Below are positions 1,796 through 19,262 of a DNA stretch of 64,000 bases, one piece after another (positions within the stretch are counted from its first letter, which is position 1; each line of letters begins with the position of its first letter). Under the pieces are notes generated by a model. The model did not search any database. It was not told where the DNA came from and worked only from the letters and a program-made list of their open reading frames with translations. A program made the translations under genes and the position numbers. The DNA is from a virus. Location: the IMG/VR virus record IMGVR_UViG_3300020438_000021, positions 1 through 64,000 of that record. One strand, 5' to 3'.

Positions 1796-2113
1796 TTAAT
1801 ACTTCCTTTCTTCCCCTTCTAGTTTGAAATTTAATTCACCGTCTGAACTAACAAATATTGAGGAGTAGCCTTTGTCTTGATATAGTTCCCTTGCTATTTC
1901 TTTTGCCTTCTTCTCTGTCATTTTCAAGTCAGTGAGTTTGATGCTTGCATACCTTTCTTTCTTTTTACCTGCTTCGCTTATTATTGGGTCTACTTTCTCT
2001 CTAAACAAATCAATATACTCAGGCATTGATAAATCGTCATTACTGTTATCACTGAACTCTGACTCTCTAGGGTTTCTAATTGGTGGTGCTTTTAGTATGT
2101 CATGCCAACTCAT
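1796..2113 (-). CDS. hypothetical protein with N-terminal WxxILK tag (MSWHDILK)
   Basis: ORF track; ATGA overlap with upstream gene. Confidence 0.75.
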   Translation of the reverse strand: MSWHDILKAPPIRNPRESEFSDNSNDDLSMPEYIDLFREKVDPIISEAGKKKERYASIKLTDLKMTEKKAKEIARELYQDKGYSSIFVSSDGELNFKLEGEERKY

Positions 2114-2292
2114 CTGCTTTCCCTCGCTTTTCTGTTTCTCTCTCGTATCATAGCCAGTAGTTCTGATTCTTTATCCTCAGTCCTCTTGGCCGCTTCTTCG
2201 TCTTGTCCGGTGGAGGCCGTTGTTGTAACTCTTGCCATCTCATCTGACTTCTCTGTACCACAACTTCCCTTTAGTGTTTCAAACCAACTCAT
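2110..2292 (-). CDS. small tagged protein (MSWFETLK)
   Basis: ORF track; GGTGA RBS upstream. Confidence 0.7.
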   Translation of the reverse strand: MSWFETLKGSCGTEKSDEMARVTTTASTGQDEEAAKRTEDKESELLAMIRERNRKARESR

Positions 2293-2359
2293 TCTTCATC
2301 ACCTAGCATTGGAAGACTCATACCCTTATGCCACTCTATATCTTCAACGATTCTGAGTT

Positions 2360-2689
2360 TCATTCCTTTTCCTCCTTCTCTCCCTTTGGGTATGCTACGC
2401 TTCTGATTTGGTCATACAGCGTTTGATAGTCTTTGCGAAGTTCAGCAGCACTTGCGAGTATGTCTAGGTTCTTCTCACGAAATGACTTCATCTTCTTGGC
2501 AAGTAGTTTATCGGTCTTAACTAAGTCGAGGTCTTCCATCTCCTTGATGACTTCCTCTAACTTCGTCATCTCCTGTCCCATGTATTCAGTTGGCTGAGTT
2601 GACTGAAGAAGTTTCTTTATCTTCTTCTTCTGCTTAGGCTCTAGTTTCTCTAGAAACTCGGAGGCTTTCAGTATCTCCTGCCATGTCAT
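2360..2689 (-). CDS. tagged helical protein (MTWQEILK)
   Basis: ORF track. Confidence 0.75.
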   Translation of the reverse strand: MTWQEILKASEFLEKLEPKQKKKIKKLLQSTQPTEYMGQEMTKLEEVIKEMEDLDLVKTDKLLAKKMKSFREKNLDILASAAELRKDYQTLYDQIRSVAYPKGEKEEKE

Positions 2690-2710
2690 GTAGTTGCCCC
2701 CTGTGTATGC

Positions 2711-4273
2711 TCAGTTAATCTTAATTGCCCTGAATTTGTCTTTCCCAACGATAAATTCAAAGTTTCCGACTGTTACTTTAACAAGTTGAATCATCTTGTT
2801 TCTAGTATTGTCAAGCACCTTCGCTTTGTCTGAGTCTGTCTCCCTGTTTCTCAAATCCAAAACATATTGCAGCATATCTTCAATCTTATCGATTATTTGA
2901 GAGACAGTCTTTGATACACTTCGGAAGTTATCAAACACTTCAGTTTCTCCTAGATATGAGAACCCTGTTGTAATATCTTCTTCATCGTCTTGAGGATTAT
3001 ATTCCCAAGTAGTATCTTTAGTGTCGATTGTAGTCTCATCTTCTGATTTATCCTCTTTGGGTTTCTTAATTTTATACTTCTGCTCTAAGGTTATCTGTGC
3101 TTCTCTTATCTGTTTTTCAGTTGCTCGTATCTTACTCTTTATCTTAGTTTGCTCATTAGTAGGTGTTTGGCTTAACTTTTGTTGTAGTTCTTCAAGTAAT
3201 GACTCATCTGAATTGATTCTATCCTCCAACTCCTGTATGTTTTTCTCTCTACCTTCTCTAACCTTCTGAGTTGTTCTTTGAGCAGCACTACTTAGATTCT
3301 CAAATATTCTTCTTCTTGCTTCTCTGCTTTCAGGGGTGCTTTCAGGGAACTTGCCATCACGATAGGCTCTGCTTAGTTTCTGACGAACCTTTACTTCTTC
3401 CTTTTCCCTTTCCTCTTTGTCTTTGATATCCTTAGTTTCCTTATCGACTTCTGCTTCGATTTTTCTTTGTATGAAATCAGGGATGGGGCTTTGGCTAGGG
3501 TCTGCTGATTTAGAGAGTGTCTTTTCCTGTTCTTCCTTGAGCCTATCTAGAGTTAGAACGAGTTGTCTGAACTGAGATAATAGTGTGCTAGGGTTTTCTC
3601 CTAGTTCATCTACATCTATGCTTTGAGTATCTCTTAACATCTCTTTTATTTTTCTAAATGCACTGTCTGATACTTTCTTTCCAGTCAACACACTTCTCTT
3701 GATACCAGCAGCGTCCTCAAAGAATGACCTCAGAACCTCAAGAGACTCTCTGCCATTGTATGTCTTCTCTACTTTTGAAAGGTCTATTGCATCTGTATCG
3801 CCTGAGATTTCTATTCCCAAGTCTTTCGCATCATCAAAGAATAACTTGAGTAGTTCAGTGTCTGCTTCTTGGCTGATTATACTCTGATAGAAATTATCTA
3901 TCTTCCTCTTGCTTGTACTTCTAGGAATTAGATATGACTTGCTAAACTCTCTGATAGTTCCTCTCATAGTAGGGTCTGATACATCATTGGTTTTGCTGTA
4001 TTTCTCTAGAATCTCTTTCCACATAGAGATTGTTGTTGCAGATTCTAATTTGCGTTTCTTATCTGTTTCTGCCAGTCCCTCTCCTTCTTTGGCTTCACGC
4101 TCTTTCTTCCTTCTCTTCTCGTCAACCAGTTGTGTTCCAGTTTTGCCTTCTCTTTCTGAAGGGTCTATTCTTCTACCGTCCACCTCTTCGGCTTCTTCTT
4201 CTATGACAATATCATCTTCTTTCTTAATACGCAAGATATCCATGAAATCCTGCGCCAAGATAATCATCCCCAC
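2711..4273 (-). CDS. large K/E-rich coiled-coil protein, possible internal virion protein
   Basis: 520-aa ORF; tag variants DFMDILRIKK and MWKEILEK; start uncertain. Confidence 0.7.
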   Translation of the reverse strand: MGMIILAQDFMDILRIKKEDDIVIEEEAEEVDGRRIDPSEREGKTGTQLVDEKRRKKEREAKEGEGLAETDKKRKLESATTISMWKEILEKYSKTNDVSDPTMRGTIREFSKSYLIPRSTSKRKIDNFYQSIISQEADTELLKLFFDDAKDLGIEISGDTDAIDLSKVEKTYNGRESLEVLRSFFEDAAGIKRSVLTGKKVSDSAFRKIKEMLRDTQSIDVDELGENPSTLLSQFRQLVLTLDRLKEEQEKTLSKSADPSQSPIPDFIQRKIEAEVDKETKDIKDKEEREKEEVKVRQKLSRAYRDGKFPESTPESREARRRIFENLSSAAQRTTQKVREGREKNIQELEDRINSDESLLEELQQKLSQTPTNEQTKIKSKIRATEKQIREAQITLEQKYKIKKPKEDKSEDETTIDTKDTTWEYNPQDDEEDITTGFSYLGETEVFDNFRSVSKTVSQIIDKIEDMLQYVLDLRNRETDSDKAKVLDNTRNKMIQLVKVTVGNFEFIVGKDKFRAIKIN

Positions 4274-4494
4274 GGATTGTTTGGCGTTTTTGCTCTCTTT
4301 TTCTTAGGTAGTAATATTGCATCAGGAACATCTCTTGTGTCGGGAGATTTCTTCTCCACGGTGTTAGGGTCTATGCCACCCACAGAGTAATCTCTGTTCT
4401 TCGTGGCGTTCCTGTTGTGGTGAGCATATTGCTCCGCCCTTGCATTCGCTAGTTCTCTTTCCAATTGTCTTACGCTTTTCTTTTCTTCTGTCAT
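4264..4494 (-). CDS. hypothetical protein
   Basis: ORF track; abuts upstream stop codon. Confidence 0.7.
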   Translation of the reverse strand: MTEEKKSVRQLERELANARAEQYAHHNRNATKNRDYSVGGIDPNTVEKKSPDTRDVPDAILLPKKKRAKTPNNPWG

Positions 4495-4740
4495 TTACTT
4501 TTCCTCCCTTAGTTGTTTGAAGTCTTTACCATCGATGTCTCCATCTCCGTCCTTGTCTAATTTCTTTTGTCCACCATAAAGTGTCTTTTCCATTTCTTCT
4601 GCAACAGCAGGGTCAACAGGGTGTTCTCTTGCCTCATGCATGTCTTTAGCAGGTTTTATTCCACCTTCTTCTGTATCCATTTCCATACCGTCATCGGGCA
4701 TTGGCATGTCAGTTTGTTTAATCACACTCCACCAATTCAT
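4495..4740 (-). CDS. tagged protein (MNWWSVIK) with EF-hand-like DKDGDGDID loop
   Basis: Start reassigned to ATG 4740 behind a GGTGA RBS; DxDxDG calcium-loop motif. Confidence 0.65.
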   Translation of the reverse strand: MNWWSVIKQTDMPMPDDGMEMDTEEGGIKPAKDMHEAREHPVDPAVAEEMEKTLYGGQKKLDKDGDGDIDGKDFKQLREEK

Positions 4741-4745
4741 CTCTC

Positions 4746-5033
4746 TCACCACAGTTTTTTACATGCAAGGCACTTGGGGGTAGTAATTCTACCTTTACAT
4801 TGGTCACAGTTATGCCTTGCTCTGAAATTCTTTCTCCTAGCAGGGTCTTTATGTGTTCCACCGCCACGATTCTTACCCTTTCTTTTGTAATTACCGTAGC
4901 CTTTAGCACCAGCATGAATCTTCTTTCCTTCATGAGTTAGCATCATTATCTTCTTGCCTTCTCTGTCCGAAGGATAGACAGTGCCTACTCGCATGTCTTT
5001 CTTGTCCTTCTTGACAATGGCAAACCAACTCAT
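4746..5033 (-). CDS. tagged basic protein (MSWFAIVK) with H-x-D-x2-RR-x2-FRARH motif typical of small marine-virus proteins
   Basis: ORF track; start reassigned to 5033; motif recalled from viral hypothetical proteins. Confidence 0.7.
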   Translation of the reverse strand: MSWFAIVKKDKKDMRVGTVYPSDREGKKIMMLTHEGKKIHAGAKGYGNYKRKGKNRGGGTHKDPARRKNFRARHNCDQCKGRITTPKCLACKKLW

Positions 5034-5034
5034 C

Positions 5035-5310
5035 TTACTCAATCCTCGTTGTCTCTTTGCTTAGATGGCGAAGCACTTTTTCACTTAATTCATATAGATG
5101 ATACAGTTTCTTACTTTCGCCTTCTACATGTTCCTTTCCTGACATTAAAGTTCCATCAGGGTGTTTGTGAGTTTCACCTGTCCATTGCTCACCATCTTCA
5201 AAGAAGTGTCTCTCTCCCTTTCCCTTCTTTACCATGACTACTTCTCCATACTTCTTGCATGGGTCTTCACCACATCCACAATTTCTCTTAACTATATTTT
5301 CCCATTTCAT
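5035..5310 (-). CDS. tagged protein (MKWENIVK) with CGCGEDPC and THKHPDGTLMSG modules
   Basis: Start reassigned to ATG 5310, overlapping the upstream stop. Confidence 0.7.
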   Translation of the reverse strand: MKWENIVKRNCGCGEDPCKKYGEVVMVKKGKGERHFFEDGEQWTGETHKHPDGTLMSGKEHVEGESKKLYHLYELSEKVLRHLSKETTRIE

Positions 5311-5687
5311 CTTGTTCCTCTCCTTCTCTTGTAGTCCTTGCAAGCAGAACATGTCGGCCTACATCGTTGCTTAGTTCCTTTAGATGCATCCTTTCTTCCA
5401 CAAGGTTTAGTTCCGGGTTCATCGTCTTCACATGACTGGCAGGAAACCCAACCTTTCTGACCATCCCCACCTCTTCTTGAAAACCAACCATGAAGCCCTT
5501 CTTTCTTCTCTCTAGCAAAGTTGTCTCCGCCTTTCTTAACTGAGTTTCCCCAATTCTTAGCACCTACTTTTCTGCACTGCACTAATGCTCCTGAAGCATA
5601 AGCAGAAGGCCACTTCTTGTATCTGCTTCTGACCTTATGGTAGCAAGCATCTTTCTCTTTCTTTAATTCCTCAAACCAAAGAGTCAT
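5307..5687 (-). CDS. tagged Cys-rich basic protein (MTLWFEELK; DACYHKV...WPSAYASGALVxCRK)
   Basis: ORF track; the motif resembles small hypothetical proteins of marine T4-like phages (from recall). Confidence 0.75.
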   Translation of the reverse strand: MTLWFEELKKEKDACYHKVRSRYKKWPSAYASGALVQCRKVGAKNWGNSVKKGGDNFAREKKEGLHGWFSRRGGDGQKGWVSCQSCEDDEPGTKPCGRKDASKGTKQRCRPTCSACKDYKRRRGTR

Positions 5688-5788
5688 GCTTTTCCCTCCA
5701 AATACTTCCTAATTCTTTCATCTGTTTCTGCGTTACGCTTCTCTGTTTCTTCTTTCCACTTCTTAACAATGTCAAGGAGTTCGCTCAA
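5684..5788 (-). CDS. 34-aa micro-ORF MSELLDIVKKWKEE...
   Basis: Translated by hand; TTG start overlaps the portal stop and its stop overlaps the next ATG. Confidence 0.55.
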   Translation of the reverse strand: MSELLDIVKKWKEETEKRNAETDERIRKYLEGKA

Positions 5789-7413
5789 CCTATTCTCCTC
5801 TCTGTTCGTGAATCAACATTTTCATTACCTGCTTCTCTAGGTAATCCGGTGAATCTCTTGTCAGGACCAGTTTCCATAGATGGTTTGTTTCTAGTTTCTC
5901 CTCCACCTTGACCCATGAGTTGTTGCTCTTGCAACTGTCCGAGTTGACTTGCATCGATATCTGTTCCTGCGTATGGGTCAGTTTCTACTTGACCCTCTTC
6001 TCCTTCTTGCGGTGGTGCTTCGGGTTTAGGGTCAGGCTTCTTGAAAGTGAATCTACCTTCATCATCCATATCAACCTCAAAGCCGAGATTCTTGATTGAT
6101 GCTGCCACGTTAACTTCAATCTCTCTCTTTCGTAGTTTGGCAATCTCATCTTCTTCTTCTGAAGGTGGTAGTTTCAACTGCCAGTCCGTGATTCCAAACT
6201 CCTTTGTCATGAATGGGAACACATAGTCATTCCAAATCGTCTGTGCCATCTCGACTGCTCTGTTGGTCACTAGTATCTGCATACCCTCGTTGTTCAATCC
6301 ACCACTAGCAGAGTTGTCTGCCATGAAGATTTTACTAACTCCATAGAAGGCAGCGATTCTATCTCTCAAGTCTTCCTTAACTTGTATGTAGTCCATTTCC
6401 TTTAGGCTGTCCATGAACTTGACCCATTCAACCGCACCTGTTTTCCCTTCACCTTCGATTCCCATAACTGGAATGAAGTGTGGGTCTTGCTCCATCTTCT
6501 CCTTGACACCACGCCAAAATGATTTCATGGATTCCATGTTTCTAGTTTGAACTGCAAGTATTCCTCTTGGCATCCTAGCCTTTGTGTATGAAGAGTTCAC
6601 ATAATTCTCCATAGCAATCAAGGTAGTGATGTGATTCCAAAGAGTCATGATTGGTGATTGCCCATACAATCTCGAAGGAGCATACTTACTGAAATGAAGA
6701 ACCTCACCCTCGATGAAGAACTGTTCCTTTCCATTTGCCCTGTTGACATAATGCACAGGATGCAATTCAGAACCACACATCTCACAGGAGTCTGTCATTG
6801 ACTTGCTGATGAAGTTACGATGATTCAAACAGGTGAATCCCTCATTCCCTCTAGTACCATTCTCATCAGCGTAGATGTGCATACTAACAGGGTCTCCACG
6901 ATAGACTTCCTTGATTCGATGCATACGAATATCCCCGTTTCCATCTACGAAATACTCCTTGACCATTACCATATATGCATCATCCATGATGTTCAGGTCA
7001 TCTTCCATCTCCTTCAGAACATCAACGAACATCTGCTCTCCTTTGTTTACATAACCTTCTAGTAGTTTCTTGATGTATTTCAGTTGGTTTCTATCAGGCT
7101 TTATGAGATTTTGACTAGAACAATCTACACACTCTGTCACTGCTTGTTTGTGTTCTCTCCCACAATCACCGCATCTAGCAGTGAACTTTTCTTCCCAAGT
7201 ATATCCTCTTCTGAATATCTCATTCTTTAACTGAGTAATACAAGTTCTAGCAATCACAGATTGATATGTGACATGATAGATTATTGGGGCTGTTATGAGA
7301 TAGGATGTGTCTTTCTCCTGAATGCCCGGATTGTATATCATTCTGTCTTGCGGCTTCGGTGTTGTCCTGCGTGTTAAACGCTGAAACAAGGTGGGTCTAT
7401 TTTCTTCTACCAT
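5785..7413 (-). CDS. portal protein with Zn-ribbon insertions
   Basis: 542 aa near TerL; PSRLYGQSP and IAAFYGV portal-like segments; CGDC/CVDC and CLNH/CEMC inserts. Confidence 0.8.
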   Translation of the reverse strand: MVEENRPTLFQRLTRRTTPKPQDRMIYNPGIQEKDTSYLITAPIIYHVTYQSVIARTCITQLKNEIFRRGYTWEEKFTARCGDCGREHKQAVTECVDCSSQNLIKPDRNQLKYIKKLLEGYVNKGEQMFVDVLKEMEDDLNIMDDAYMVMVKEYFVDGNGDIRMHRIKEVYRGDPVSMHIYADENGTRGNEGFTCLNHRNFISKSMTDSCEMCGSELHPVHYVNRANGKEQFFIEGEVLHFSKYAPSRLYGQSPIMTLWNHITTLIAMENYVNSSYTKARMPRGILAVQTRNMESMKSFWRGVKEKMEQDPHFIPVMGIEGEGKTGAVEWVKFMDSLKEMDYIQVKEDLRDRIAAFYGVSKIFMADNSASGGLNNEGMQILVTNRAVEMAQTIWNDYVFPFMTKEFGITDWQLKLPPSEEEDEIAKLRKREIEVNVAASIKNLGFEVDMDDEGRFTFKKPDPKPEAPPQEGEEGQVETDPYAGTDIDASQLGQLQEQQLMGQGGGETRNKPSMETGPDKRFTGLPREAGNENVDSRTERRIG

Positions 7414-7414
7414 T

Positions 7415-8752
7415 TTATTCTACCCCGTTTTGTATCGCTGATTCTAACTTATCCATCTCTCTTGTCTTATCATTATCATAATACTTGACAACAGAATCAA
7501 TGTCTATGTTATACTTTGCGAAATCGTAGTTCTTGTCATCTTTATGGTTCTCATACTTCATTAGTTTGAATAGTTCTTCCTTACGAGCATTATACCAACT
7601 AGCCTTCTTATGGCTCTTTTTCATTCGGAGCAGTTCAATCAGTATCTCTGCATTTTTCTTCTTTAGTCTGAAGAACGGCAGACACTTGCTTAGTATTTCG
7701 CCTACATCATTTCTAGAGTAGAAGTTGAGCCTATTGATTGGCTTCGTGTCCTGTGGAGATTTTTGGTCTAAGTGCAATCTGCCACAGCCTAGTGATTTAT
7801 GCATCTCCAACATGAATGCCTTACCTCTGTCTCCGGTTGCCACTAAACCTATTCTTGGATTGTGATTCTTATCCATAGTGATGTATCCATCAGAGTCAAT
7901 GAAAGCAGCAGTGTATGCGTAGATGTCTTTCTTAATCTCGTCACTCATCTTGTATAGTGCGCCATCGACAACAGTTACATTGGCAGAACGTGCCATCTTG
8001 GATATCATAGCAGGAGATGTTTTCTTGAATAGATTATTTGGTAGTCTTTCATGAACTTGTCTTGCTGAGATTCCTTGCTCCTCACTCACTAGCCTTACTA
8101 TGTGTCTCTTGATTATTTCCTTTGGACCGATATTAACTACATATTTCTTGATTTTACTATTGACTGCTCTCTTGTTGCTTGACATCTCTTTGGTCAGTCT
8201 AGCATATTCTTCCCCATATGCCATACCATTTCTGTCTAGTCTTGCTTCCCAATATTTGCAAAGAGTATCTACTATGTCTCTTCGAGTACCTTCATCATGG
8301 ATGAGAGATAGTTTGATTATGTTCTCTTCTGAAAGAGTCAAATCCTTCAATGCAGGTTTGTATTTCTTAATCCAATATATCTTGTTGACATTCTCATCTA
8401 GATGTGAAGAGTAGGCGGTGATTAGATTGTCTATTGATTTTGTAACGGCTATCTTTGGTTCTCCTTTTAGGGTTCTTCGATAGGTTCTCAGTTCCTTTAT
8501 CATATCAGGAATGTCTTTACCTTCTATCTCATATTTCTTCAGATGGGTTCTCATTTCCTTTCTTGCCTTTGAGAGACCAATATTATATTGCTCTGAGAAT
8601 CTCTTGACCACTTCAAAGTGACTTGTCAGTGGTTGCTCATCTAACCATTCGCCTTTGAGTGACTCTGTGAGTTCTTTCTGTCTCTCTTGGAGTTCTTTTT
8701 CTTGGTCAGCGAGTTCTGCTGCTTCCCTGAATTTATCTCCTTTTTCACTCAT
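7415..8752 (-). CDS. helical/wHTH + LAGLIDADG endonuclease-domain protein
   Basis: YTAAFIDSDGYI LAGLIDADG helix; LGCGRL and LPFFRLKKKNAE segments typical of this fold. Confidence 0.75.
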   Translation of the reverse strand: MSEKGDKFREAAELADQEKELQERQKELTESLKGEWLDEQPLTSHFEVVKRFSEQYNIGLSKARKEMRTHLKKYEIEGKDIPDMIKELRTYRRTLKGEPKIAVTKSIDNLITAYSSHLDENVNKIYWIKKYKPALKDLTLSEENIIKLSLIHDEGTRRDIVDTLCKYWEARLDRNGMAYGEEYARLTKEMSSNKRAVNSKIKKYVVNIGPKEIIKRHIVRLVSEEQGISARQVHERLPNNLFKKTSPAMISKMARSANVTVVDGALYKMSDEIKKDIYAYTAAFIDSDGYITMDKNHNPRIGLVATGDRGKAFMLEMHKSLGCGRLHLDQKSPQDTKPINRLNFYSRNDVGEILSKCLPFFRLKKKNAEILIELLRMKKSHKKASWYNARKEELFKLMKYENHKDDKNYDFAKYNIDIDSVVKYYDNDKTREMDKLESAIQNGVE

Positions 8753-8761
8753 ACTTTCACC

Positions 8762-10198
8762 TCAAAAGTTGATACCCATGACACCGGATACACTACGCCG
8801 AGTAGTAGTAGGTTCATCAAAGATGTCCAAGTCATCAAGTAAAACGAACTGCCCTCCTGTTCCTTGTGAAGCAGCATTGGCAAGTGCCAAACTCATAACC
8901 AAATCGTCATGTGCGCCAACGCCCTCGAACTTTCCACTAGCCGTAATTGAGAACATCGAGAGTTCTTCAATCAATGCACCAGTGAGTCTTCTACTTGCAT
9001 TGTCACCATAGGGCATTATTATCTTCTGATTCTCTATGTTCATTTGAAGGTTTAGTATTATCTCTTGCTTCTTCTTTCTAGTTGTATTGAAATCTCTGAC
9101 ATTCAAATCTGTCATGTTCTTCAATTCCTGTGTGAATGCCTTTGCGAATGTGTTGGTCTCAAACAGAATCTCCTCCGGCTCGAACACCTTTCCAATCAGA
9201 CGTATCTTTTGTATGTTCTCTCTAAACTCAATGTTCTTGGCTCTATCAACATGAACGATTGCTTTGTTCTTACTCTCGTCAACCTCTAGAACTGTGATAA
9301 CGTTGTAGTCCCCATCAGTCGAGATAGCAGGGTCAACACCAACATAATACTTGTATCCCTTCTCTTTCCTATTTCCTAATTTCAAAACATATTCCTTATT
9401 CTTACATTTCTCTATGAACTCAGGATTGAACAGAGCAGTTCCGGTAGATATAGGAACACACAAGTATTCTCTAGTAAACTTCAGAGAACCTATCTCTGCC
9501 TTTCTCTGCATAAGAGCATCATACGCCCAACGCTCAGGCCATAATGGTTCGTTCAAAGCATTGAGACATGGGTATTTCGTGACAGTATATGCTTCGTTCT
9601 CTTCCAACTGTGCGAAGATATCTGTATAAGTAAACGGAGTACCAATCATCCTGAGTTTGGAAGTGTGATGCAGAGTTGGAATCATGTCACCGAAGAACCA
9701 GTCAGTGACTCTCTGAATACCAGCGAGGCTAAACTCCTTCAAAGGGTCGTCAATGATAATCTCCTGTGGGTGAAGACCACGAATCTGAGAACCAACGGAA
9801 CGCTCTAGAATCGCATTACCATTGGTTAACTGAATATTCCCAATCGCCCATCCACGACTAGGCTTGAATTGTTTCAATGCTGGCAGGTTGAAGTATCTGT
9901 CAATCTCCCTCATGTGAACTAGAGTCTGTTTTTGGTTAGATGAGATGTAGAGCATTTGATATGGTGGCTCTTGAAAGACGAGATTCCAAACTACCCAACT
10001 GTGCATAAAGACGGATTTACCGTGGTCTCTGCTGCAAATTATAACTGTACGGTCAGTCTTGTCCATAGAGTCTAACCACTCTTTCATGTATTCAGGATAC
10101 ATCATACCGAGAACATTCTGAAAGAAATACGGGAATGAGTTTTTTGATATTTCCATATCCATACTAGATACGAAGTCTAGGTTATCTAGTTCAGTCAC
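8762..10198 (-). CDS. terL: terminase large subunit
   Basis: Walker A SRDHGKS, Walker B IIIDD, IGTP coupling motif, nuclease GVDPA...HDDLVMS; GTG start at 10198 behind GAGGTG. Confidence 0.93.
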   Translation of the reverse strand: MTELDNLDFVSSMDMEISKNSFPYFFQNVLGMMYPEYMKEWLDSMDKTDRTVIICSRDHGKSVFMHSWVVWNLVFQEPPYQMLYISSNQKQTLVHMREIDRYFNLPALKQFKPSRGWAIGNIQLTNGNAILERSVGSQIRGLHPQEIIIDDPLKEFSLAGIQRVTDWFFGDMIPTLHHTSKLRMIGTPFTYTDIFAQLEENEAYTVTKYPCLNALNEPLWPERWAYDALMQRKAEIGSLKFTREYLCVPISTGTALFNPEFIEKCKNKEYVLKLGNRKEKGYKYYVGVDPAISTDGDYNVITVLEVDESKNKAIVHVDRAKNIEFRENIQKIRLIGKVFEPEEILFETNTFAKAFTQELKNMTDLNVRDFNTTRKKKQEIILNLQMNIENQKIIMPYGDNASRRLTGALIEELSMFSITASGKFEGVGAHDDLVMSLALANAASQGTGGQFVLLDDLDIFDEPTTTRRSVSGVMGINF

Positions 10199-10683
10199 TA
10201 GAAAACACCTCTCATTAGGATGAATCTCCAACCTAAGTTCTTCTTGATTCCCCAATCATCACCATACCTCTGTCGAAACTTATCGACTAACTCTTCGGGT
10301 ATTCCCATCGAGTCATCAGTTTGGAATTTCAGATTTCTATGTAAACCGACCCACGTTTGCTGTGGTATTTTCGTAGACCTAAGCCCTAGAATCTTAGGCT
10401 TCCCTGCTAACTTGTCCATTCTGTATTGCAAAAGTGCCTTCCAATTTCCACCGCCTTTTGGTGCATTTCTATCTCTTGCCTTCAAACCGCCTAAGACACC
10501 ATACTCTCCTTTGTCACTATAACCAGCAACACCAACGACTTCACCATCGTTTGTTCTGATAACCCAATTATCCAAGTCATACCAAGAGGGAGCGTTTCTC
10601 ACAAATGGGTCATCAGGGTTATCCCTGTTCCACATGAAGAAGGCATCATCCTTCGACACTTCCTTGATTTGTATGTCTGCCAT
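10198..10683 (-). CDS. GNAT-like acetyltransferase; C-terminal GWRFILMR tag variant
   Basis: Start MADIQ at 10683; DGEVVGVAGY...LGGL...KGGGNWKALL resembles GNAT motif A. Confidence 0.55.
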   Translation of the reverse strand: MADIQIKEVSKDDAFFMWNRDNPDDPFVRNAPSWYDLDNWVIRTNDGEVVGVAGYSDKGEYGVLGGLKARDRNAPKGGGNWKALLQYRMDKLAGKPKILGLRSTKIPQQTWVGLHRNLKFQTDDSMGIPEELVDKFRQRYGDDWGIKKNLGWRFILMRGVF

Positions 10684-10687
10684 TCCC

Positions 10688-13639
10688 TCACCTGAAATTT
10701 GCTTTGAGGAAATAGACCCCCTCTTGTGGGATACCGTACTTTGTGCCAATGCTTTGCATAGAGTCAATCTCCTTCACTACTCTTTCTATTTCCATAGCAG
10801 TCATATCCACTTTGTACTTGTCATTCATAACATCAATCGCCTCTGACACGGCATCGTAGTTGTCTATGTTTGATATGCCGTAATAGACAGGCTTGCCCAT
10901 CATCTTCCTAATTTCATCATGTGCCTTCAGGAGAAGTGACTGTTCAACAGACTTGGTTATCTTCAGGTCTTTCTCTGCCTGTTGTATGTTTCCAATCATT
11001 GGCTCTGACCCTTTCACATTCTCTTTGTATTCGGGCTTGTTGACTATTAGGTGATTGAGTATTGACTCGAATGGATATAGTTTCTGTGATTCATATTCCT
11101 CAGACCACTCATTTGTCATCTTCTTAGTTCCTCCAATTCCAAAGTTCTGTGGCTTCAATTTAGCATCATCGAAAATATTGTGCAGAAAATTACCAAACTC
11201 GATGTTTACCATCTCTGACAATTCACCCTGAAATATGTCATCTACCGTATCAGCCAAGTTTATTGTTACCTTCATTAACTCAGTCTGCTTTGACCCGACA
11301 TTCAACCCAACCAATACTCTTGTGAAATCTCGCATCTCTTCGATTTGTGATAGGCTTAGTCTGAAGTCTGTGCTTTCCATTCTAAGAACATGTATGAATG
11401 GGCTGTCTTCCTTTGTTGTTTCTTGTGCTATATTCTCAATTGGCCGAGTTCCAAGTTTAACAACATAACCTAATTTCTCATCCGAAGGCTTGAACTTGCT
11501 TCTGCTTGGTTCGATGAAGAACTCAACAATACTGTCTATTAGATTCTCAAACTTAGTATGTATGTCGAGTGTTTTCAATTCTCTAAGGTGGGTGTTCCCT
11601 GCCCCTGCTCTAGCAAATGTGACTCTTGGTGAACGTGCTTCTCTGACAGTTTTACCCGCATCATCTTTCCTTTCCCTTTGACCAAGACCTACACTACCGC
11701 CCTTTGAACTCCTCTCGAAATCAGTACCATACTCAATGAACTCATTGACGAGTTTAAGATACTCAGATATCCTCTCATGCACATCGTCATCCTCTCCGCC
11801 CTTTATCTCCTTCATCAATGGAAGGTACAAATTGTCTAGAGAACCGACTTCCATTCTCTCAAGGTCTTTCGTATATCTGTCTAGAGCAGGTATCAAATCG
11901 CTTCTCTCTATTAGAACGAAACCAGTTTTCAACCTTCTCTTAATTTCATTTAGTTGCTTCTTCACAAGTGTTCCGGCACTCAATTCATCTGCCTCTCCTG
12001 TCTTTACAGCATAGGCATAAAGAGGGTCTACCTTAATCTTCATTAGATTGTTGACTTTATCCTTCAACTCATCTTCTTGGTCTTGGGCTTCCAATGATTG
12101 AACTAGTTCACCATATCTACTGACATCATCCTTGTATTCTTCCTCTTGCACGATGAAGTTCTGCTTTGGATATCTATTGATGTCCTTCAAGAAATTCTTG
12201 AATAGCACCACTGATTTGCTTTCTATATTATCGATGTCCTCAATCTCCATCCTATCATACAGGTCAATGTAGTTCAAGTCACTGGTTTTGACAGCCTTGA
12301 ACTCCTTGAAGAGTTTCTCCAACTCGCTTGCATATTCTGTTTCATCATCTAATTTGTCTATTGCATCCTTGAACTCTTTGTGTGATTTTTCAAACTCGCT
12401 AAACTTATCATTGATTGTACCCCAATATTCGTAAATCTCCTTTCTCCTTTTGATATCCTTAGTGTCGATTCTACCTATTATCTCAGAGCCTCTTAGTTCA
12501 GAGATTCGATATTGTCCTTCTCCCCTCTCTTTCTTGTCATCCAACTGCTTCAACATGTTCTTGAACGGAAGCATGATTGGAATCATGTATTCGGGTATCT
12601 CGGTGTCTAGGACTCGTATTGCGGTATCTGTCTTAATTTCAGAATCGAAGCCTAACCTTATGTTCTTCTCAACATAGTTGTTCCAAGCCCTATTCGTTCT
12701 ACCGACTTTTTTCTTTGGTGGGTATCTATCGAAGTAGAACTTGACAATCTTCTCATCGAGTTTCTCCCCTCTCTCTGTGAACATACTTAGTATGCTCAAT
12801 AGTTGTCGGTCTTTCTTCACTTCACTTATTATTTCAGCCCCGCTCAACCTGACTCTATCTGCATCAGTACCTTCTCTTATTATATCGAGACTTCTTGCAA
12901 CTAACTCCTCAAGCATTGGGGTCTTCTTAGTTGCTCTCAACATATCGAAGTTTGGAAACTTCTTCTCTATTTCCTCTTGAACATCTGCTGCTATTACCTG
13001 TGTCTTCTTTCTTTCACCATCTGCATTTAGAGACAACCTGCCTTGCAGGGATTTTCCTCGCATGATGGCTATGTCGCTTGCTTCCCTTGAGTTTGATTTC
13101 TCTTGTAGGAAAACGTAGAGGACATCATCAGGGAACTTCTTCATGTCCCTGAGTTTCAATTTCTCGGTAATCTTCTGCTTCGATGCAGGTCTAGCAGCGT
13201 TATCAGCATCCATGTCCTCTTTGATTTGGCTTACCATTTCCTCGTCTGAGTATTTCTTCGGGACTCTTTGTGTGCTTTCAACTATCTCTGCTAGATAGCC
13301 ATTCTCTGTTTGTTGTGATTTAGGTGTGCCTTTCGGTGCAGGAATAGGCATACCTGCTGCGTTCTTCTTTGGCTGCTTCTCCTTGACTTTCTTATCCTCG
13401 TATTCTTCTAGCCCTCTTGCTTGCATCTCACCGACCAGTTGCTCAGTCGTCATTTTCTCAGGGTCTTTCCTAGTCACGCCTGTCTTCTTCGGAGTGCCGT
13501 CCTCATTGAACGATGCCTTTGGTTTGTCATTAGGCCAAAAGTGTTCGGCGTTCAATCGATTCATGTATGCATCGAGTTCGTCTTCGCCTCCTTCCATCAG
13601 CGAGGCAAAGGCTCGATTGTAGTCTAATGGTGGTTTCAT
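10688..13639 (-). CDS. large hypothetical protein (983 aa), putative virion/internal protein
   Basis: Long ORF in the head module; no recognisable catalytic motif. Confidence 0.75.
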   Translation of the reverse strand: MKPPLDYNRAFASLMEGGEDELDAYMNRLNAEHFWPNDKPKASFNEDGTPKKTGVTRKDPEKMTTEQLVGEMQARGLEEYEDKKVKEKQPKKNAAGMPIPAPKGTPKSQQTENGYLAEIVESTQRVPKKYSDEEMVSQIKEDMDADNAARPASKQKITEKLKLRDMKKFPDDVLYVFLQEKSNSREASDIAIMRGKSLQGRLSLNADGERKKTQVIAADVQEEIEKKFPNFDMLRATKKTPMLEELVARSLDIIREGTDADRVRLSGAEIISEVKKDRQLLSILSMFTERGEKLDEKIVKFYFDRYPPKKKVGRTNRAWNNYVEKNIRLGFDSEIKTDTAIRVLDTEIPEYMIPIMLPFKNMLKQLDDKKERGEGQYRISELRGSEIIGRIDTKDIKRRKEIYEYWGTINDKFSEFEKSHKEFKDAIDKLDDETEYASELEKLFKEFKAVKTSDLNYIDLYDRMEIEDIDNIESKSVVLFKNFLKDINRYPKQNFIVQEEEYKDDVSRYGELVQSLEAQDQEDELKDKVNNLMKIKVDPLYAYAVKTGEADELSAGTLVKKQLNEIKRRLKTGFVLIERSDLIPALDRYTKDLERMEVGSLDNLYLPLMKEIKGGEDDDVHERISEYLKLVNEFIEYGTDFERSSKGGSVGLGQRERKDDAGKTVREARSPRVTFARAGAGNTHLRELKTLDIHTKFENLIDSIVEFFIEPSRSKFKPSDEKLGYVVKLGTRPIENIAQETTKEDSPFIHVLRMESTDFRLSLSQIEEMRDFTRVLVGLNVGSKQTELMKVTINLADTVDDIFQGELSEMVNIEFGNFLHNIFDDAKLKPQNFGIGGTKKMTNEWSEEYESQKLYPFESILNHLIVNKPEYKENVKGSEPMIGNIQQAEKDLKITKSVEQSLLLKAHDEIRKMMGKPVYYGISNIDNYDAVSEAIDVMNDKYKVDMTAMEIERVVKEIDSMQSIGTKYGIPQEGVYFLKANFR

Positions 13640-15492
13640 TCTCTAACCCCCTGTGATATCTGAATCCAAATAGCAGGTTCTACAAACCCGCCTTCGGGAC
13701 TAGGTATCTTGATTCCCATTGCCTTGCCCTCTGCACTTATGTCCTTCATTCTATCCTTCACACCATCGAGGAAAGCCTTCCTTATCTTGGGATAGTGTTC
13801 AATCACCCTTTCCCTGAATTGTTGAGAAGTAATTTTACCCTCTTCCAAATCATACTCGTCTTCCTGTATTTCACCTGCGTTATACAGAACACCTAACTTG
13901 TCTAACGTAGTAACAATGTGCTGAAGTGTCCCGTTGTTTTCATCGGGAGTCATTGAGTTGTCTACTGCTTCCCCACGAATGACATCTTCAAGTGCAGACC
14001 AAGCATCCACCTTCTCACTCTCAAAGTATGTGAGTTTGGCCTTATCTGCTGAGAGTGCTTGCATCGTATTATCCGAACGCCTTACCCTCATGTTCCCAAG
14101 AGCCTCGATAACATCATCAATGTCGCCTATCTCATCTTCAACATCATTGATTGATTTGAACGAGTCATCGATGCCCAGTTTCTTTATCGCTGCCATGAAC
14201 TGTCTTGCAGATTCATCATCTAATGCCTCGACTATCTCATCTCTTATTTCTTCAGTCATGGGATTTCCCTTGTCATCGGACATCGCTTCCTCGAACTCCG
14301 CATTGGCATCTTCATCTGCTCTTATATCTGCGAACATCTGTTTCTTTGCTCTATTACCCTTTCTTGAGATATCCTGCCATTTCTTCGGAGATGTGTCAGA
14401 TGTGACTCTGATTCTTTCTTCTCTCTGTTCAGGGGTTTCGTTCTTCCTACCGAAGAATGCTTCGATGTCTTCTTTGTACTTGTCATAGATTACACTGATA
14501 TTCGGACCAGTTACGATTTCATTGATTATTTTCTTCAGTCCTCTGTCTTCTACGATGTTACGCTTCTTGTAACTCGTTGGGATTGCTGACTGATTCAACG
14601 CCTCATTGTTTAGTATGAACTCCAATGCAGGTGATATAGCCTTAGTTGCAAATATGTATTTTACAAGCCCACTCATGCTAGAGTTGGTAGTGTCATAAAG
14701 AAATGCCAACTTCTTGTTGGAATTAGCGACATTCATTATCTTCTTGATGTAGTCAATAACTATGCTATCACTTATGCTTGTCCTAATCTCCACTTGAGGG
14801 ACTCCACCTATCTTCAGGATTTTCTTTATCTTCGCTATCTCAGGATACTTATCCTCGGAGTCAGATAACAATGCCCTTCTAAGGCTCTTGTTAGCCTGTA
14901 TGAAATTTCTTGCTCTTTGATTTCTAGCATCTTGTTTTCCAGCATACTTATTTTTTCCTCTGCCTTCTAGGACTTCTAGAAGTTCTGCATATTTTTTGTT
15001 CTCTATGAAACTCTTGATGTCCCTGTCTAAGTTTCCTCTCCTGTTAGTTGCACTGGTTTTCTTCGGTGTTATGTTACTCAGTCTTTCGATGATAGCATCA
15101 ACGTTAGGAAAGATATCGGTATCCCTCAACTTGAAGTCTGTTCCTCTAATGTTTACAGTTTCACCTTGGAGGAGTCTTCTTGCTTTCTGAGCGGTTTGAA
15201 CTTGGGCGGAACTCAATCCATCTTTCGTATACTCTTCCCAACTATCTTCTTTCGAGGCTGCTTGCCAAATCTTGAATGTCGGTGTGTTCGGTTTCACTGG
15301 AAAGTCCTTGACTTCCTGCTTTCCAAAATCGAAGAGGTTTGCATCCTTCGTCTTAGCAGATTCTTTCTCCCTGCGAAGTTTCTCATCTCTTTTTCGATGA
15401 AACTTCTTTCTCTCTTCGTTGTAGCCCATAACTTGAGGCTTCACCTTCTTTGGCTCGATTTTTTCTTCCTTAAGAACGTCTTGCCAACTCAT
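13636..15492 (-). CDS. tagged large protein (MSWQDVLK), 618 aa
   Basis: ORF track; ATGA overlaps on both sides. Confidence 0.78.
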   Translation of the reverse strand: MSWQDVLKEEKIEPKKVKPQVMGYNEERKKFHRKRDEKLRREKESAKTKDANLFDFGKQEVKDFPVKPNTPTFKIWQAASKEDSWEEYTKDGLSSAQVQTAQKARRLLQGETVNIRGTDFKLRDTDIFPNVDAIIERLSNITPKKTSATNRRGNLDRDIKSFIENKKYAELLEVLEGRGKNKYAGKQDARNQRARNFIQANKSLRRALLSDSEDKYPEIAKIKKILKIGGVPQVEIRTSISDSIVIDYIKKIMNVANSNKKLAFLYDTTNSSMSGLVKYIFATKAISPALEFILNNEALNQSAIPTSYKKRNIVEDRGLKKIINEIVTGPNISVIYDKYKEDIEAFFGRKNETPEQREERIRVTSDTSPKKWQDISRKGNRAKKQMFADIRADEDANAEFEEAMSDDKGNPMTEEIRDEIVEALDDESARQFMAAIKKLGIDDSFKSINDVEDEIGDIDDVIEALGNMRVRRSDNTMQALSADKAKLTYFESEKVDAWSALEDVIRGEAVDNSMTPDENNGTLQHIVTTLDKLGVLYNAGEIQEDEYDLEEGKITSQQFRERVIEHYPKIRKAFLDGVKDRMKDISAEGKAMGIKIPSPEGGFVEPAIWIQISQGVRE

Positions 15493-15785
15493 GCTGGTTT
15501 CCTCCTTAACATTCTAACGTGAGTCATAGGTGTGACTGGTTCTCTTATTCTATCGAACCTTTGAACATCTTTGCCTCCAAAACCCATTGCACCGATTATA
15601 TCATACGCTATTCGTATGGCATTATCAAAATCATATCCATTCACCATAGCATTGATTAGATATTCTTCATGCTTGCCTGAGTCTTTGTACTTCTTTTGTT
15701 CAGCAAGAAGTGTGTTTCTGTCCATATTTCTAAATGGCTCAAGTTTACTGCGAGGAACTCTTTTTAGAACATCAAACCAACTCAT
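15489..15785 (-). CDS. tagged protein (MSWFDVLK)
   Basis: ORF track; GGTGA RBS. Confidence 0.72.
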   Translation of the reverse strand: MSWFDVLKRVPRSKLEPFRNMDRNTLLAEQKKYKDSGKHEEYLINAMVNGYDFDNAIRIAYDIIGAMGFGGKDVQRFDRIREPVTPMTHVRMLRRKPA

Positions 15786-15792
15786 TGCATCT

Positions 15793-16011
15793 TCACCTCA
15801 ACTTGAATAAATCCATTTCCTTGATTTTTTGTAGAGCCTCTCTAACATCGCTAACATGGTCAGGATTAGTCATGTCCTTTCTCTTTGGTATTTCTTCATG
15901 AGCCATATCTTTCAATGTATCAACAATATCATCAAACTCAAATGCTAAATCTTGCAATTGAAGATGTGTGTCTCTTAGTTGAACACTCTTCACTATATCT
16001 TTCCAACTCAT
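15793..16011 (-). CDS. tagged protein (MSWKDIVK)
   Basis: Start reassigned to ATG 16011, overlapping the upstream stop. Confidence 0.7.
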   Translation of the reverse strand: MSWKDIVKSVQLRDTHLQLQDLAFEFDDIVDTLKDMAHEEIPKRKDMTNPDHVSDVREALQKIKEMDLFKLR

Positions 16012-16664: not shown

Positions 16665-16668
16665 TCAC

Positions 16669-16758
16669 TCATCTCTCACAAATTGTAAAGCAGTATGGGC
16701 AACAACTCGATATTGCCATATCATCTTCTTCCACTCTTCCCAATCCTCTACATCTCAT
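16669..16758 (-). CDS. 29-aa Cys-rich micro-ORF (MRCRG...CCPYCFTICER)
   Basis: Translated by hand; fills the gap between adjacent genes. Confidence 0.4.
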   Translation of the reverse strand: MRCRGLGRVEEDDMAISSCCPYCFTICER

Positions 16759-17829
16759 TTACTGCACCATCTTTACTATATGTCTCCAATCGGAAAAATC
16801 CTGCTTTTCTACCTTCTCTTCTGTTTTCTTATTCTTGAAACCAGCGATTTCTGCCATGTTGTTAAGTTGCCTTACTGAAATCTTCAGGTAGACTTCCTCT
16901 AAGTCAACCTTGAAGTCGGTTTGTAGCCACGCCTGTATTTTACTAGACTCATCATCGTTCAACGGGAGTTTAGTATTCAGGATTTCTCGCTGTAATTTCT
17001 TAGCATTGATGTTTCCTGTGCGATAGACGTAGGAAGGATTGTTGATTTTACTATCGAACCAAGTCTTGAAAGTAGGGATGTTCTCATAAACCCACTTTGC
17101 TGCCGCTCCTCGCATCTTAGGATTCTTGATAGTCAAATTGAATGGATTCCTTCTAGTGTTGTATGCCTTCGCCTTTCCACTTTCAAAGGATGATAGAACA
17201 TCATTACAAATCATAAGGAGACTAGGGTGTTTGAAATCTTCTCCCTGCTCTTCTGCGAAAAGTGCTTGCCAAACTGGAACTTCCGCCTTTCCGGGTTCTG
17301 TTGCAATCCAATTGTCAGGTGCTTGCTCATATGTTCTATCCTTGAATTTCTTCTGATAGTTAACGAACTTCCTCGTTCGGTAATCACCATAAACATCCAA
17401 TGGTGCTAGAACCTTGCCCTTTCTATCATAACTAGCAATGCTGTTGTACTTGATATTCTGCGGGTTTAACTTTGAATTTTCATTATTGTTGCTTTCTAGA
17501 TAATCACGCAATGCCTTAACTGCGGTCAATTGCTCAGAAGTATAGGACTCTTGACTTCCAGCATTTGCTGCTTTATCGATATATTCCTGCGCTGGTGCTT
17601 TGACATCTTGAGTCTCACCCTTCGAGTTCTTCCTAGATTTAACTCCCATGTTCTTGACGAACTCCAAGATGGTTTGCGGCATTTTAGGAATGCTCTTGCC
17701 AGCCTCTTTAGTCCAAGATGTTAGTAAGGCAGAGAAATCAGGAACTTCTTCGGGTAATTCTACTTCCAATCCGGGTGCTAGTTCGGCGGTCTGCGTCTTC
17801 TTCTTTACTGGTTTTTTTCCGCTTACCAC
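16759..17829 (-). CDS. hypothetical protein with C-terminal tag (DWRHIVK)
   Basis: 356-aa ORF; GGAGG RBS. Confidence 0.75.
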   Translation of the reverse strand: MVSGKKPVKKKTQTAELAPGLEVELPEEVPDFSALLTSWTKEAGKSIPKMPQTILEFVKNMGVKSRKNSKGETQDVKAPAQEYIDKAANAGSQESYTSEQLTAVKALRDYLESNNNENSKLNPQNIKYNSIASYDRKGKVLAPLDVYGDYRTRKFVNYQKKFKDRTYEQAPDNWIATEPGKAEVPVWQALFAEEQGEDFKHPSLLMICNDVLSSFESGKAKAYNTRRNPFNLTIKNPKMRGAAAKWVYENIPTFKTWFDSKINNPSYVYRTGNINAKKLQREILNTKLPLNDDESSKIQAWLQTDFKVDLEEVYLKISVRQLNNMAEIAGFKNKKTEEKVEKQDFSDWRHIVKMVQ

Positions 17830-17947
17830 GCTTCTTTCCTCCCCCGTAACTTATGTTGAATAATGACTCTGTTCCGCCGGAAGTTGTGGTAACTGCACCA
17901 GCACTTCTTAGGATATTAAACCAAGAAGACTCTGATACTGATGACAC
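17738..17947 (-). CDS. small tagged basic protein (SSWFNILR...AGAVTTTS)
   Basis: GGAGGT RBS; 3' end overlaps the next gene. Confidence 0.55.
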   Translation of the reverse strand: MSSVSESSWFNILRSAGAVTTTSGGTESLFNISYGGGKKRGKRKKTSKEEDADRRTSTRIGSRITRRSS

Positions 17948-18012
17948 AACCTGAACCTCCTGAATATACCGTGGACAATAAACATTGTTCTAAAATCGTT
18001 TGGTTGACGAAT

Positions 18013-18561
18013 TTAGAATTGGCCCTGTACGGCACTCGACTGAGGCTTGTCTTCAATGAATTGTCTTGCTCTGTCATCCTTGAATCTAGTCATTGGATTG
18101 ACTCTCCTTCCACCTCTCCTAAGTCTGTTCATGAAACCGCCTCTTTGTTCCCTTGCTTGGAATTGTCTTGGGTCAGTCATTTTCTTTCCTCCATATGTTG
18201 AAGTCTTAGGAATGCTAACAGTCATATCCTTGCCCATGAAAGAGCCTTTCGCTTTATATCCTGCCTTTTTGAAAACCTGCTGCAACTTTGCCTTGATTCT
18301 ATTTGGGTCTCCTCCTAACCTTCTGATTTGGTCTCGACCAACAACAAACGTGTCTCCTTGAGGGCCACTGTTAGCAGAGTTGTTGTCAACCCTCAACTTG
18401 AACACTGGAAGTTGACCCTGTTTTAGATTACCAACGATATTTTCAACGAATGGGGTTATCTGCTGCTCTTGGAACACTTCAATTTCCTGATTTATCTTCT
18501 GCTCGTTACCCGCTACACCAAACTTAGGAACAATCTTGAGAACCTCTGTCCAATCACTCAT
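18013..18561 (-). CDS. tagged protein (MSDWTEVLK)
   Basis: Start reassigned to ATG 18561. Confidence 0.72.
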   Translation of the reverse strand: MSDWTEVLKIVPKFGVAGNEQKINQEIEVFQEQQITPFVENIVGNLKQGQLPVFKLRVDNNSANSGPQGDTFVVGRDQIRRLGGDPNRIKAKLQQVFKKAGYKAKGSFMGKDMTVSIPKTSTYGGKKMTDPRQFQAREQRGGFMNRLRRGGRRVNPMTRFKDDRARQFIEDKPQSSAVQGQF

Positions 18562-18587
18562 CGTTAATCCCATACCACCCAAGTTAA

Positions 18588-19262
18588 TTATGATGTCGCT
18601 GCTGCATCAGAATAAAATCGCTTTTTGCACAAAGCACAAATCTCCCTTCCTTCAGGGTCTGAATCCCCTCTCATGAAATTAGAAGAACCACACTTGGCAC
18701 ACTCTTCCTTCGCATCTTTGACTTCGGGTTTCTTACTTCCCAATCTGCTCCTCATTCTCATAGCGTGTTCCAAAGGGTCGAGTTTCACAACATCGAACCA
18801 ACTCCCAACTCCCTCTTCAAACGAAGATTTGTTCGTCTGTTGTGCTTTTGCGGTTTGTATTGCTTTATCCAATACGAATTGCATCAAGTCAATTGCTTTG
18901 TCTCTAAGTCCGAATGTCCTAGAAAATCGTTTAGATAGCGGTTTTATTATCTGCGCAGGTATTTGGGCTTCCATATTATAATGTATCAGACCCGGAACTT
19001 GATGAGTTATCTGATTCAGATATTCTTCAACAGGCATTTGTCTCAAAGTCTGTATTTGGTCATTCAAACTAAATCTTCCTTGAGAACTCTTTTCCCATGC
19101 TTCAGCCGCTAGACCACTGCCTTTCAATCCTAGAATAAAATTATACAAGTCTTGAAAGGTTCTTATTGTTCCTATCTGCGTTTGGATTTCGCTAACCTTT
19201 TGTTGTACGGCTTGCGGTGGAAAATATGAATCCTCTTTCTTTAGAGTATCAGACCAACTCAT
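18588..19262 (-). CDS. doubly tagged protein (MSWSDTLK; internal SWFDVVK) with C-terminal Zn ribbon
   Basis: GGAGAGGTG RBS; CAKC...CALC. Confidence 0.75.
   Translation of the reverse strand: MSWSDTLKKEDSYFPPQAVQQKVSEIQTQIGTIRTFQDLYNFILGLKGSGLAAEAWEKSSQGRFSLNDQIQTLRQMPVEEYLNQITHQVPGLIHYNMEAQIPAQIIKPLSKRFSRTFGLRDKAIDLMQFVLDKAIQTAKAQQTNKSSFEEGVGSWFDVVKLDPLEHAMRMRSRLGSKKPEVKDAKEECAKCGSSNFMRGDSDPEGREICALCKKRFYSDAAATS

Follow-up and report, generated by a model that had tools for sequence, protein, structure and literature searches.

The maturation protease of phage HK97 reportedly contains, outside its catalytic domain, a conserved C-terminal stretch by which the protease, together with its fusion partners, is taken into the procapsid, a result ascribed to Duda, Oh and Hendrix in 2013. 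In encapsulins, a short terminal peptide at either end of unrelated cargo proteins docks inside an HK97-fold shell. The internal proteins of phage T4 (IPI-III and Alt) are a diverse set sharing only an N-terminal capsid targeting sequence (CTS), which directs them into the prohead core and is removed by gp21 (PMC3012670, PMC7411985). Furthermore, the first 30 residues of DarB from phage P1 suffice for packaging (PMC9024508), and the coat-binding domain of the P22 scaffold is a C-terminal helix-loop-helix (PMC3185693). The subject of the present analysis is an eight-residue peptide, M-[STNK]-W-x-x-[ILVT]-[ILV]-K (the tag hereafter), found at the N-termini of many otherwise unrelated proteins in the viral record IMGVR_UViG_3300020438_000021 of IMG/VR, of which the first 64,000 nt (the window) of a 79-kb contig (G000) were scanned. 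An earlier reading of the same DNA (the original prediction) had proposed, by analogy with T4, that it is an address label for a variable set of prohead cargo proteins. From sequence comparison and analogy, it is considered fairly probable that the tag is a terminal docking peptide, copied from the tail of the scaffold, by which variable cargo enters the prohead, with probable clipping behind its Lys.

A degenerate DNA pattern of the tag, searched in IMG/VR, matched more than 119 stretches, and 121 loci from among the matches listed were joined with the window into one set. At least 450 open reading frames (ORFs) of this set start with the tag, their median length being 107 aa. The consensus is M-S-W-[EKQF]-D-I-L-K, conservation stops after the Lys (Lys in 397 cases versus Arg in 9), and a purine-rich Shine-Dalgarno signal is found at -12 to -8 across 404 tags. 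Once the tag is removed, the 450 tagged ORFs fall into at least 242 BLAST clusters, including 185 singletons. As regards the carriers, 40 of 44 tag-rich contigs, among them every contig at least 90% complete, encode a portal protein 57-95% identical to that of the window. The same pattern, run over cellular genomes (596 Gb), gave lone matches in unrelated taxa (110 of the 120 not at an ORF start) and no genome with two or more tags, which is the chance expectation; taken with the shared portal, this makes the tag lineage-specific. Ascertainment bias was removed by fetching loci through the capsid protein only and counting the 19 with full flanks: in the 10 kb upstream of the capsid gene, 69 of 250 ORFs are tagged, and in the 10 kb on its downstream side 0 of 282 are (p = 7e-26). 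Complete genomes have 10 to 23 tagged genes each, always in one block. The number varies even at 95% portal identity (13 in the window contig, which is incomplete, and 10 in its closest complete relative, G028), and the tagged gene content itself turns over between genomes with portals 95% identical. Since at least 579 viral contigs of IMG/VR encode a relative of the capsid protein, the lineage is very common in marine metagenomes. By sequence comparison, the tag is thus the mark of one abundant, magrovirus-like lineage of archaeal tailed viruses.

The same peptide is found at C-termini, and there it meets a protein of recognised function. The prohead protease of the lineage belongs to Pfam Peptidase_S78 (PF04586, 3.9e-11), and about 230 residues, the putative scaffold, make up its C-terminal half behind the S78 domain. 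In 21 of 21 aligned sequences this protein ends in [AE]-M-[DS]-W-[SGN]-[DE]-I-H-[KN]-[ML]-[VA] plus 3-5 residues, with W402 invariant; that is, the tail of the protease is the tag including its Met, His replacing Leu. The AlphaFold2 (AF2) model of this protein is poor (predicted local distance difference test, pLDDT, 46), too poor for locating the I-L-K sites in the structure, and it contains a helical hairpin at residues 302-383 (pLDDT 65-84) and a terminal helix over the motif. A family of 74-81 aa encoded between portal and protease ends in M-D-W-x-D-I-H-K in G002, G004, G028 and 8 further loci, all homologues of a family of 302-386 aa (16759-17682 in the window) end in D-W-R-x-I-[IVM]-K plus 2-3 residues, and in several further families the ending is S-W-x-x-I-L-K with 1-3 residues behind it. 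The N-terminal tags were also turned into a scoring matrix, which was run over 131,288 non-N-terminal positions of five genomes and ranked at the top three mis-called starts, then four internal copies, and then the C-termini of the protease/scaffold and other families. Nine of the 18 hits with at least 5 bits lie within 10 residues of the C-terminal end, where 4.7% of the positions lie, although these hits come from about four families, whose orthologues are not independent. The internal copies, for their part, sit at gene-fusion joints: the ORF at 18588-19262 corresponds to two separate tagged ORFs in the closest relative (L001), and a 279-aa protein of G004 with an internal tag corresponds to the 161-aa protein of the window plus an additional tagged 100-aa gene of G001. 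Among GenBank phages the closest portal is that of halovirus HVTV-1 (28% identity), in which the tag was not found, and a capsid-gene search for a distant clade in which the co-variation of tag and scaffold tail might be followed gave only relatives at least 68% identical.

In the window, a six-frame scan for W-x-x-[ILVT]-[ILV]-[KR] placed every copy of the original prediction on the minus strand, at 0.9-19.5 kb, and 13 minus-strand ORFs (1.8-19.3 kb) carry the tag at their N-terminus. Twelve of the 13 start directly with M-x-W or M-x-x-W, the exception being the ORF at 17738-17947, and a Shine-Dalgarno-like site precedes 12 of the 13 starts. The copies announced at 2113, 2292, 2689, 4740, 5033, 5310, 5687, 15492, 15785, 16011, 18561 and 19262 are all found at those starts on the minus strand. 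The one at 17947 is real, with the qualification that it lies some residues behind a GTG start and ends in Arg. The earlier figure of about 15 tagged proteins comes down to 13 N-terminal copies, their otherwise unrelated nature being upheld. The internal SWFDVVK and the two C-terminal copies listed earlier (16759-17682 and 10198-10683) are present as well, and the ORF at 1569-1793 adds a third C-terminal one. The carriers in the window are as follows.

1569..1793, minus strand: 74-aa conserved protein with C-terminal MSWDEIRK plus 6 residues, from the family alignment.
1796..2113, minus strand: 105-aa ORF with tag MSWHDILK and a Shine-Dalgarno site; its start and the upstream stop codon overlap in an ATGA; the family (cluster 2) is conserved.
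2110..2292, minus strand: 60-aa ORF with tag MSWFETLK, then a G-S-C-G-T-E motif; member of cluster 0.
2360..2689, minus strand: 109-aa helical protein with tag MTWQEILK, from an alignment of 16 homologues and an AF2 model.
4495..4740, minus strand: 81-aa ORF with tag MNWWSVIK and a weakly EF-hand-like C-terminus.
4746..5033, minus strand: 95-aa ORF with tag MSWFAIVK and a DUF5754 body, from the family search.
5035..5310, minus strand: 91-aa ORF with tag MKWENIVK, from the scan and start check.
5307..5687, minus strand: 126-aa ORF with the degenerate tag MTLWFEELK (W-F-E-E-L-K); DUF5872-like, phrog_727.
10198..10683, minus strand: 161-aa protein with a decayed C-terminal copy, GWRFILMR, from comparison with G001 and G004.
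13636..15492, minus strand: 618-aa conserved protein with tag MSWQDVLK, the largest tagged protein of the window, with tagged homologues in relatives.
15489..15785, minus strand: 98-aa ORF with tag MSWFDVLK, from the scan and start check.
15793..16011, minus strand: 72-aa ORF with tag MSWKDIVK, from the scan and start check.
16759..17682, minus strand: 307-aa protein ending in D-W-R-H-I-V-K-M-V-Q, from homologue comparison.
17738..17947, minus strand: 69-aa ORF with a GTG start (AGGAGG 8 nt upstream of it) and tag SWFNILR at residues 8-14, Arg replacing Lys.
18013..18561, minus strand: 182-aa ORF with tag MSDWTEVLK; cluster 12.
18588..19262, minus strand: 224-aa ORF with tag MSWSDTLK and internal SWFDVVK (residues 154-160) at a gene-fusion joint.

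Homologues of the 69-aa ORF in relatives have the tag at the very start. This ORF and the 307-aa protein behind it (17682-17947, minus strand) form one 431-aa ORF in L067 and are separate in other relatives; the join has an A/G-rich run, and a frameshift, a split gene or an assembly error are all possible there.

Does the conservation act on the peptide or on the nucleotides that encode it? Selection on the mRNA or on translation initiation would be suggested by the codon usage at the start: when the second residue is Ser, its codon is AGT in 96 of the 109 cases on which the search pattern had no bearing and, in the capsid-fetched sample, in 51 of 53, compared with 28% in gene bodies. Many of the starts are, moreover, ATGA overlaps with the upstream stop, on which ground the AGT bias is assigned to the start context. 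Nevertheless, the codons of positions 6-8 (the two hydrophobic residues and the Lys) vary synonymously, both among the window copies and in the whole tagged ORF set, so that conservation acts at the peptide level. In addition, the same peptide is found at C-termini with ordinary Ser codons before the Trp (TCN in 33 of 36) and at internal fusion joints (AGT in 12 of 20). Because the C-terminal copies use TCN, the peptide must be what is selected at both termini and at the joints, and the AGT bias concerns the start context only. An explanation at the level of the mRNA is thereby largely refuted and retains hardly any credibility.

At the protein level, the tag behaves as a separable module. In the 16-member family of the 109-aa protein, M1, W3 and K8 are invariant and indels occur directly after the tag, and in the AF2 model of that protein (pLDDT 76) residues 3-9 form a short helix apart from the helical body. 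Paralogues exist both with and without the tag, for example in G004, and the DUF5754 body of the ORF at 4746..5033 has a different, untagged N-terminus in G028. The tagged proteins are almost always soluble, to judge from their sequences, since a transmembrane-like segment was found in only 6 of 432, mostly chance hits outside the lineage. Basic charge was considered as a cargo signature and discarded, the median isoelectric point being 6.2 versus 5.9 (p = 0.08, no clear difference). With regard to the expansion of single families, G001 has seven or eight tandem paralogues with the tag followed by N-I-Q-I-S-S-Q-R-T, one of them of 806 aa (L126-L130 83832-89600 and 5-679), and G004 has a similar N-Q-I-S-S-T-K-G family with one untagged member.

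The position of the tagged genes in the genome is well defined. In the window, their block encloses the genes of the portal and of the large terminase subunit.

5785..7413, minus strand: portal protein, untagged (PF04860; phrog_18178, 1e-66).
8762..10255, minus strand: large terminase subunit, untagged (phrog_38, 2e-52).

The genes of the prohead protease and the capsid protein are absent from the 79-kb contig; in G028 they come after the ligase-like gene, which the left end of the window truncates. The tagged genes thus flank terminase and portal and not the capsid gene, and "head module", as their location had been called, is loose wording. No tag was found on the genes of the plus-strand replication arm (24-54 kb) or on the giant tail-like genes (55-79 kb) of the contig, and no tag lies between the capsid gene and the tail genes. 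With a conservative gene call, 9 of 31 genes are tagged versus 0 of 48 replication and tail genes (Fisher p = 1e-4), in agreement with the earlier statement that the replication arm lacks N-terminal copies. This arrangement invites an alternative in which the peptide docks to the portal, the terminase or a viral assembly factory, and the tagged proteins would be at the packaging vertex or the assembly site instead of inside the head. It would account for genes that surround terminase and portal. Against it stand two observations: the sole carrier of recognised function is the protease/scaffold, which acts inside the procapsid, and no tail or terminase protein of the window contig and the relatives compared carries the motif. 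On balance, this alternative is unlikely.

Several neighbouring genes deserve a mention in their own right. Four very large ORFs (2085, 2119, 2303 and 868 aa; contig positions 55586-78101, minus strand, partly past the window) are all untagged, begin with M-A-[NT]-S, M-T-S or M-V-Y, and presumably encode tail or fibre proteins. At the left end of the window (1-1068, minus strand) an ATP-dependent ligase/nucleotidyltransferase domain is found (PF01068, 5e-18; 8e-29 in G001), whose carrier is a protein of 788-1026 aa that lies directly upstream of the prohead protease in all relatives (in G028, L290-294 58453-61017); a separate 510-aa ORF is located in the replication arm of the window (38325-39857). 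Between terminase and portal, a 445-aa gene (7415-8752, minus strand) has an HNH-endonuclease-like C-terminus (phrog_5046, 4e-7), and the same two positions are taken by free-standing HNH genes in halovirus HVTV-1. Many genes of the replication arm (25320-51208, plus strand) have M-K-M starts (ATGAAAATG), of which the second Met may be the true one, and many end in Glu or Asp-Glu, which looks like a by-product of GAGGA ribosome sites and ATGA overlaps.

The Lys that closes the tag recurs in the head proteins themselves. All proteases have an invariant F-x-I-L-K six residues ahead of the S78 domain, after a variable leader, and an invariant F-D-I-L-K at the end of that domain, at the junction with the helical domain and before a variable linker. 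The capsid protein (441-456 aa, matching SU10_MCP) is without a long delta domain and has about 30 conserved N-terminal residues ending in L-L-K, a site (N-x-L-[LIM]-K at about residues 25-32) that is followed by a variable Gly-rich linker. The invariance of I-L-K/L-L-K at the boundaries of the protease's own domain and near the capsid N-terminus is the reason to think that the S78 protease probably clips the N-terminal tags after the Lys. As a pattern, these sites and the near-absolute Lys of the tag suggest a protease cutting after hydrophobic-Leu-Lys. The same sites, together with the 397-to-9 preference for Lys over Arg, could be taken to mean that the motif is only the recognition and cleavage site of the S78 protease (hydrophobic-Leu-Lys, cut after Lys), without any addressing. 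Under that assumption, however, cutting at the C-terminal copies, 1-8 residues from the end, would be pointless, and the Trp would have no reason to be invariant five residues away from the cut; furthermore, since the protease works within the prohead, its substrates must first get there. Cleavage without addressing is accordingly given rather little chance.

The strict conservation of the Lys also admits a role as acceptor of a viral ubiquitin-like (Ubl) system, encoded by Ubl, E1-like and JAMM genes at 28.5-35.5 kb, or of the tag as a timed degradation signal. Gene calls for a Ubl-like and an E1-like protein, with matching N-terminal sequences, exist in G001, G002 and G004. Nonetheless, no acceptor-type consensus follows the Lys, the motif also ends the protease/scaffold, and the tagged genes are translationally coupled to late packaging genes, which leaves this explanation very improbable. 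As for the system itself, the Ubl-like ORF (28538-28744) and the short E1-like ORF (33304-33903, about 190 aa), both on the plus strand, have N-terminal sequence matches in these three complete relatives, on account of which the tag-bearing lineage seems to have it as a stable trait.

How does the proposed docking and loading by the tag compare with the described systems? As in the T4 CTS, diverse, fast-evolving proteins have nothing in common but a short N-terminal peptide, in which an aromatic residue comes early and two hydrophobic residues precede the charged one that closes it, and the genes are late ones from the head-assembly and packaging part of the genome. Unlike the T4 CTS, with which it has no sequence similarity, the tag ends in I-L-K and not in I-A-E, occurs also at C-termini, matches the scaffold tail, exists on a far larger scale, with 9 to 23 tagged genes in each genome, and belongs to viruses of an archaeal host; the protease is of the HK97 type (S78) and not gp21. 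By analogy, the tag probably works like the T4 CTS without being homologous to it. With HK97, the lineage shares an S78 prohead protease that is extended, beyond its catalytic domain, by a conserved C-terminal stretch. The HK97 signal, however, serves the protease alone, whereas hundreds of other proteins bear this peptide, most of them at the N-terminus, and the capsid protein has no long delta domain for the signal to bind. Encapsulin cargo peptides resemble the tag in being terminal, at either end, and in the HK97-fold shell; the difference is that encapsulins are cellular, with no portal, DNA or protease, whereas this lineage has portal, terminase, protease and tail genes. The peptide consensus is likewise unrelated, and encapsulin operons hold few cargo types. 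DarB of P1, finally, has an N-terminal packaging signal as well, sufficient for a reporter, and its cargo is an anti-restriction protein delivered with the DNA; that signal, of more than 9 and up to 30 residues, is unlike the tag in not being a motif common to many proteins. The tag is different from T4, HK97 and encapsulins in its scale and in the link between cargo tag and scaffold tail. The motif was not found in the magrovirus papers searched, and no paper linking capsid targeting with archaeal viruses was found among those searched. Literal tag strings turned up in the literature only in frog dermaseptins (N-terminus ALWKDILK), a coincidental amphipathic helix.

The favoured account takes M-S-W-x-[DE]-I-[LH]-K for the short terminal docking helix of the lineage. 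Its conserved carrier would be the C-terminal tail of the prohead protease/scaffold, and it is because this carrier of recognisable function must be built into the procapsid that the tag is read as a copy of its docking tail. The same peptide on unrelated, soluble, fast-turnover late proteins, mostly N-terminal and more rarely C-terminal, would direct them to the same place, and they would co-assemble into the prohead as cargo, part of which would probably be delivered to the host with the DNA. The N-terminal tags would probably be clipped by the S78 protease. Candidates for the docking partner are the inside of the capsid, the core of the scaffold and the portal. As to the address label for variable prohead cargo of the original prediction, the comparison strengthens it in two respects: the same motif ends the S78 protease/scaffold and two conserved proteins encoded in the block from portal to capsid, and it is carried at either terminus by more than 240 unrelated families, nearly all of them soluble, a set that turns over from one close relative to the next. 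The T4 analogy concerns the proposed mode of action and not common descent.

There are also points that weigh against this account. The scaffold role of the C-terminal half of the protease is argued from its position, a low-confidence hairpin and analogy, and the Leu of the tags is His in the scaffold copy, which may make the two bind differently. The load is large, with up to 23 tagged proteins (about 5,000 residues in G001) for a capsid of about 95 kb. The tagged genes cluster around terminase and portal rather than the capsid gene, which makes a role centred on the portal or on packaging possible. Furthermore, searches of the tagged bodies in Pfam, PHROGs, NCBIfam, PDB profiles and the ESM Atlas were nearly empty as to function; the 618-aa protein (13636..15492) had no match in family and structure searches. 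The sole matches of tagged bodies were to DUF5754, to a DUF5872-like region and, among the large tagged proteins that relatives encode (L096:7066-8679, L096:9369-10379 and L052:20-1396), to GNAT acetyltransferases (8e-5), to PAP2 phosphatases (1e-14) and, weakly, to SAM lyases (6e-4). These last three are candidate delivered enzymes, and too few to argue from. When the capsid protein was co-folded with residues 1-40 of a tagged protein, no verdict was reached (score 0.00, controls not run), and this counts neither for nor against binding.

A more general and more tentative proposal, which could well be wrong, is a cargo code in which a W-x-x-I-L-K helix at either end of a protein would mimic the scaffold tail and load an HK97-fold capsid, with up to a fifth of the genes and hundreds of families constituting a swappable, injected arsenal for host takeover or counter-defence. 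If true, archaeal viruses would thereby gain their first known capsid-targeting system, and its eight residues would provide a ready-made tag, usable at either end, for loading foreign proteins into capsids. Magroviruses infect Poseidoniales, which are among the most abundant archaea of the surface ocean, and hardly any of their late genes has a known function. With a shared address label, dozens of these dark-matter genes per genome, and hundreds of families, would be placed inside the virion, likely to be delivered with the DNA. It would also mean that short-peptide cargo loading evolved independently in archaeal HK97-type viruses, by copying the tail of the scaffold.

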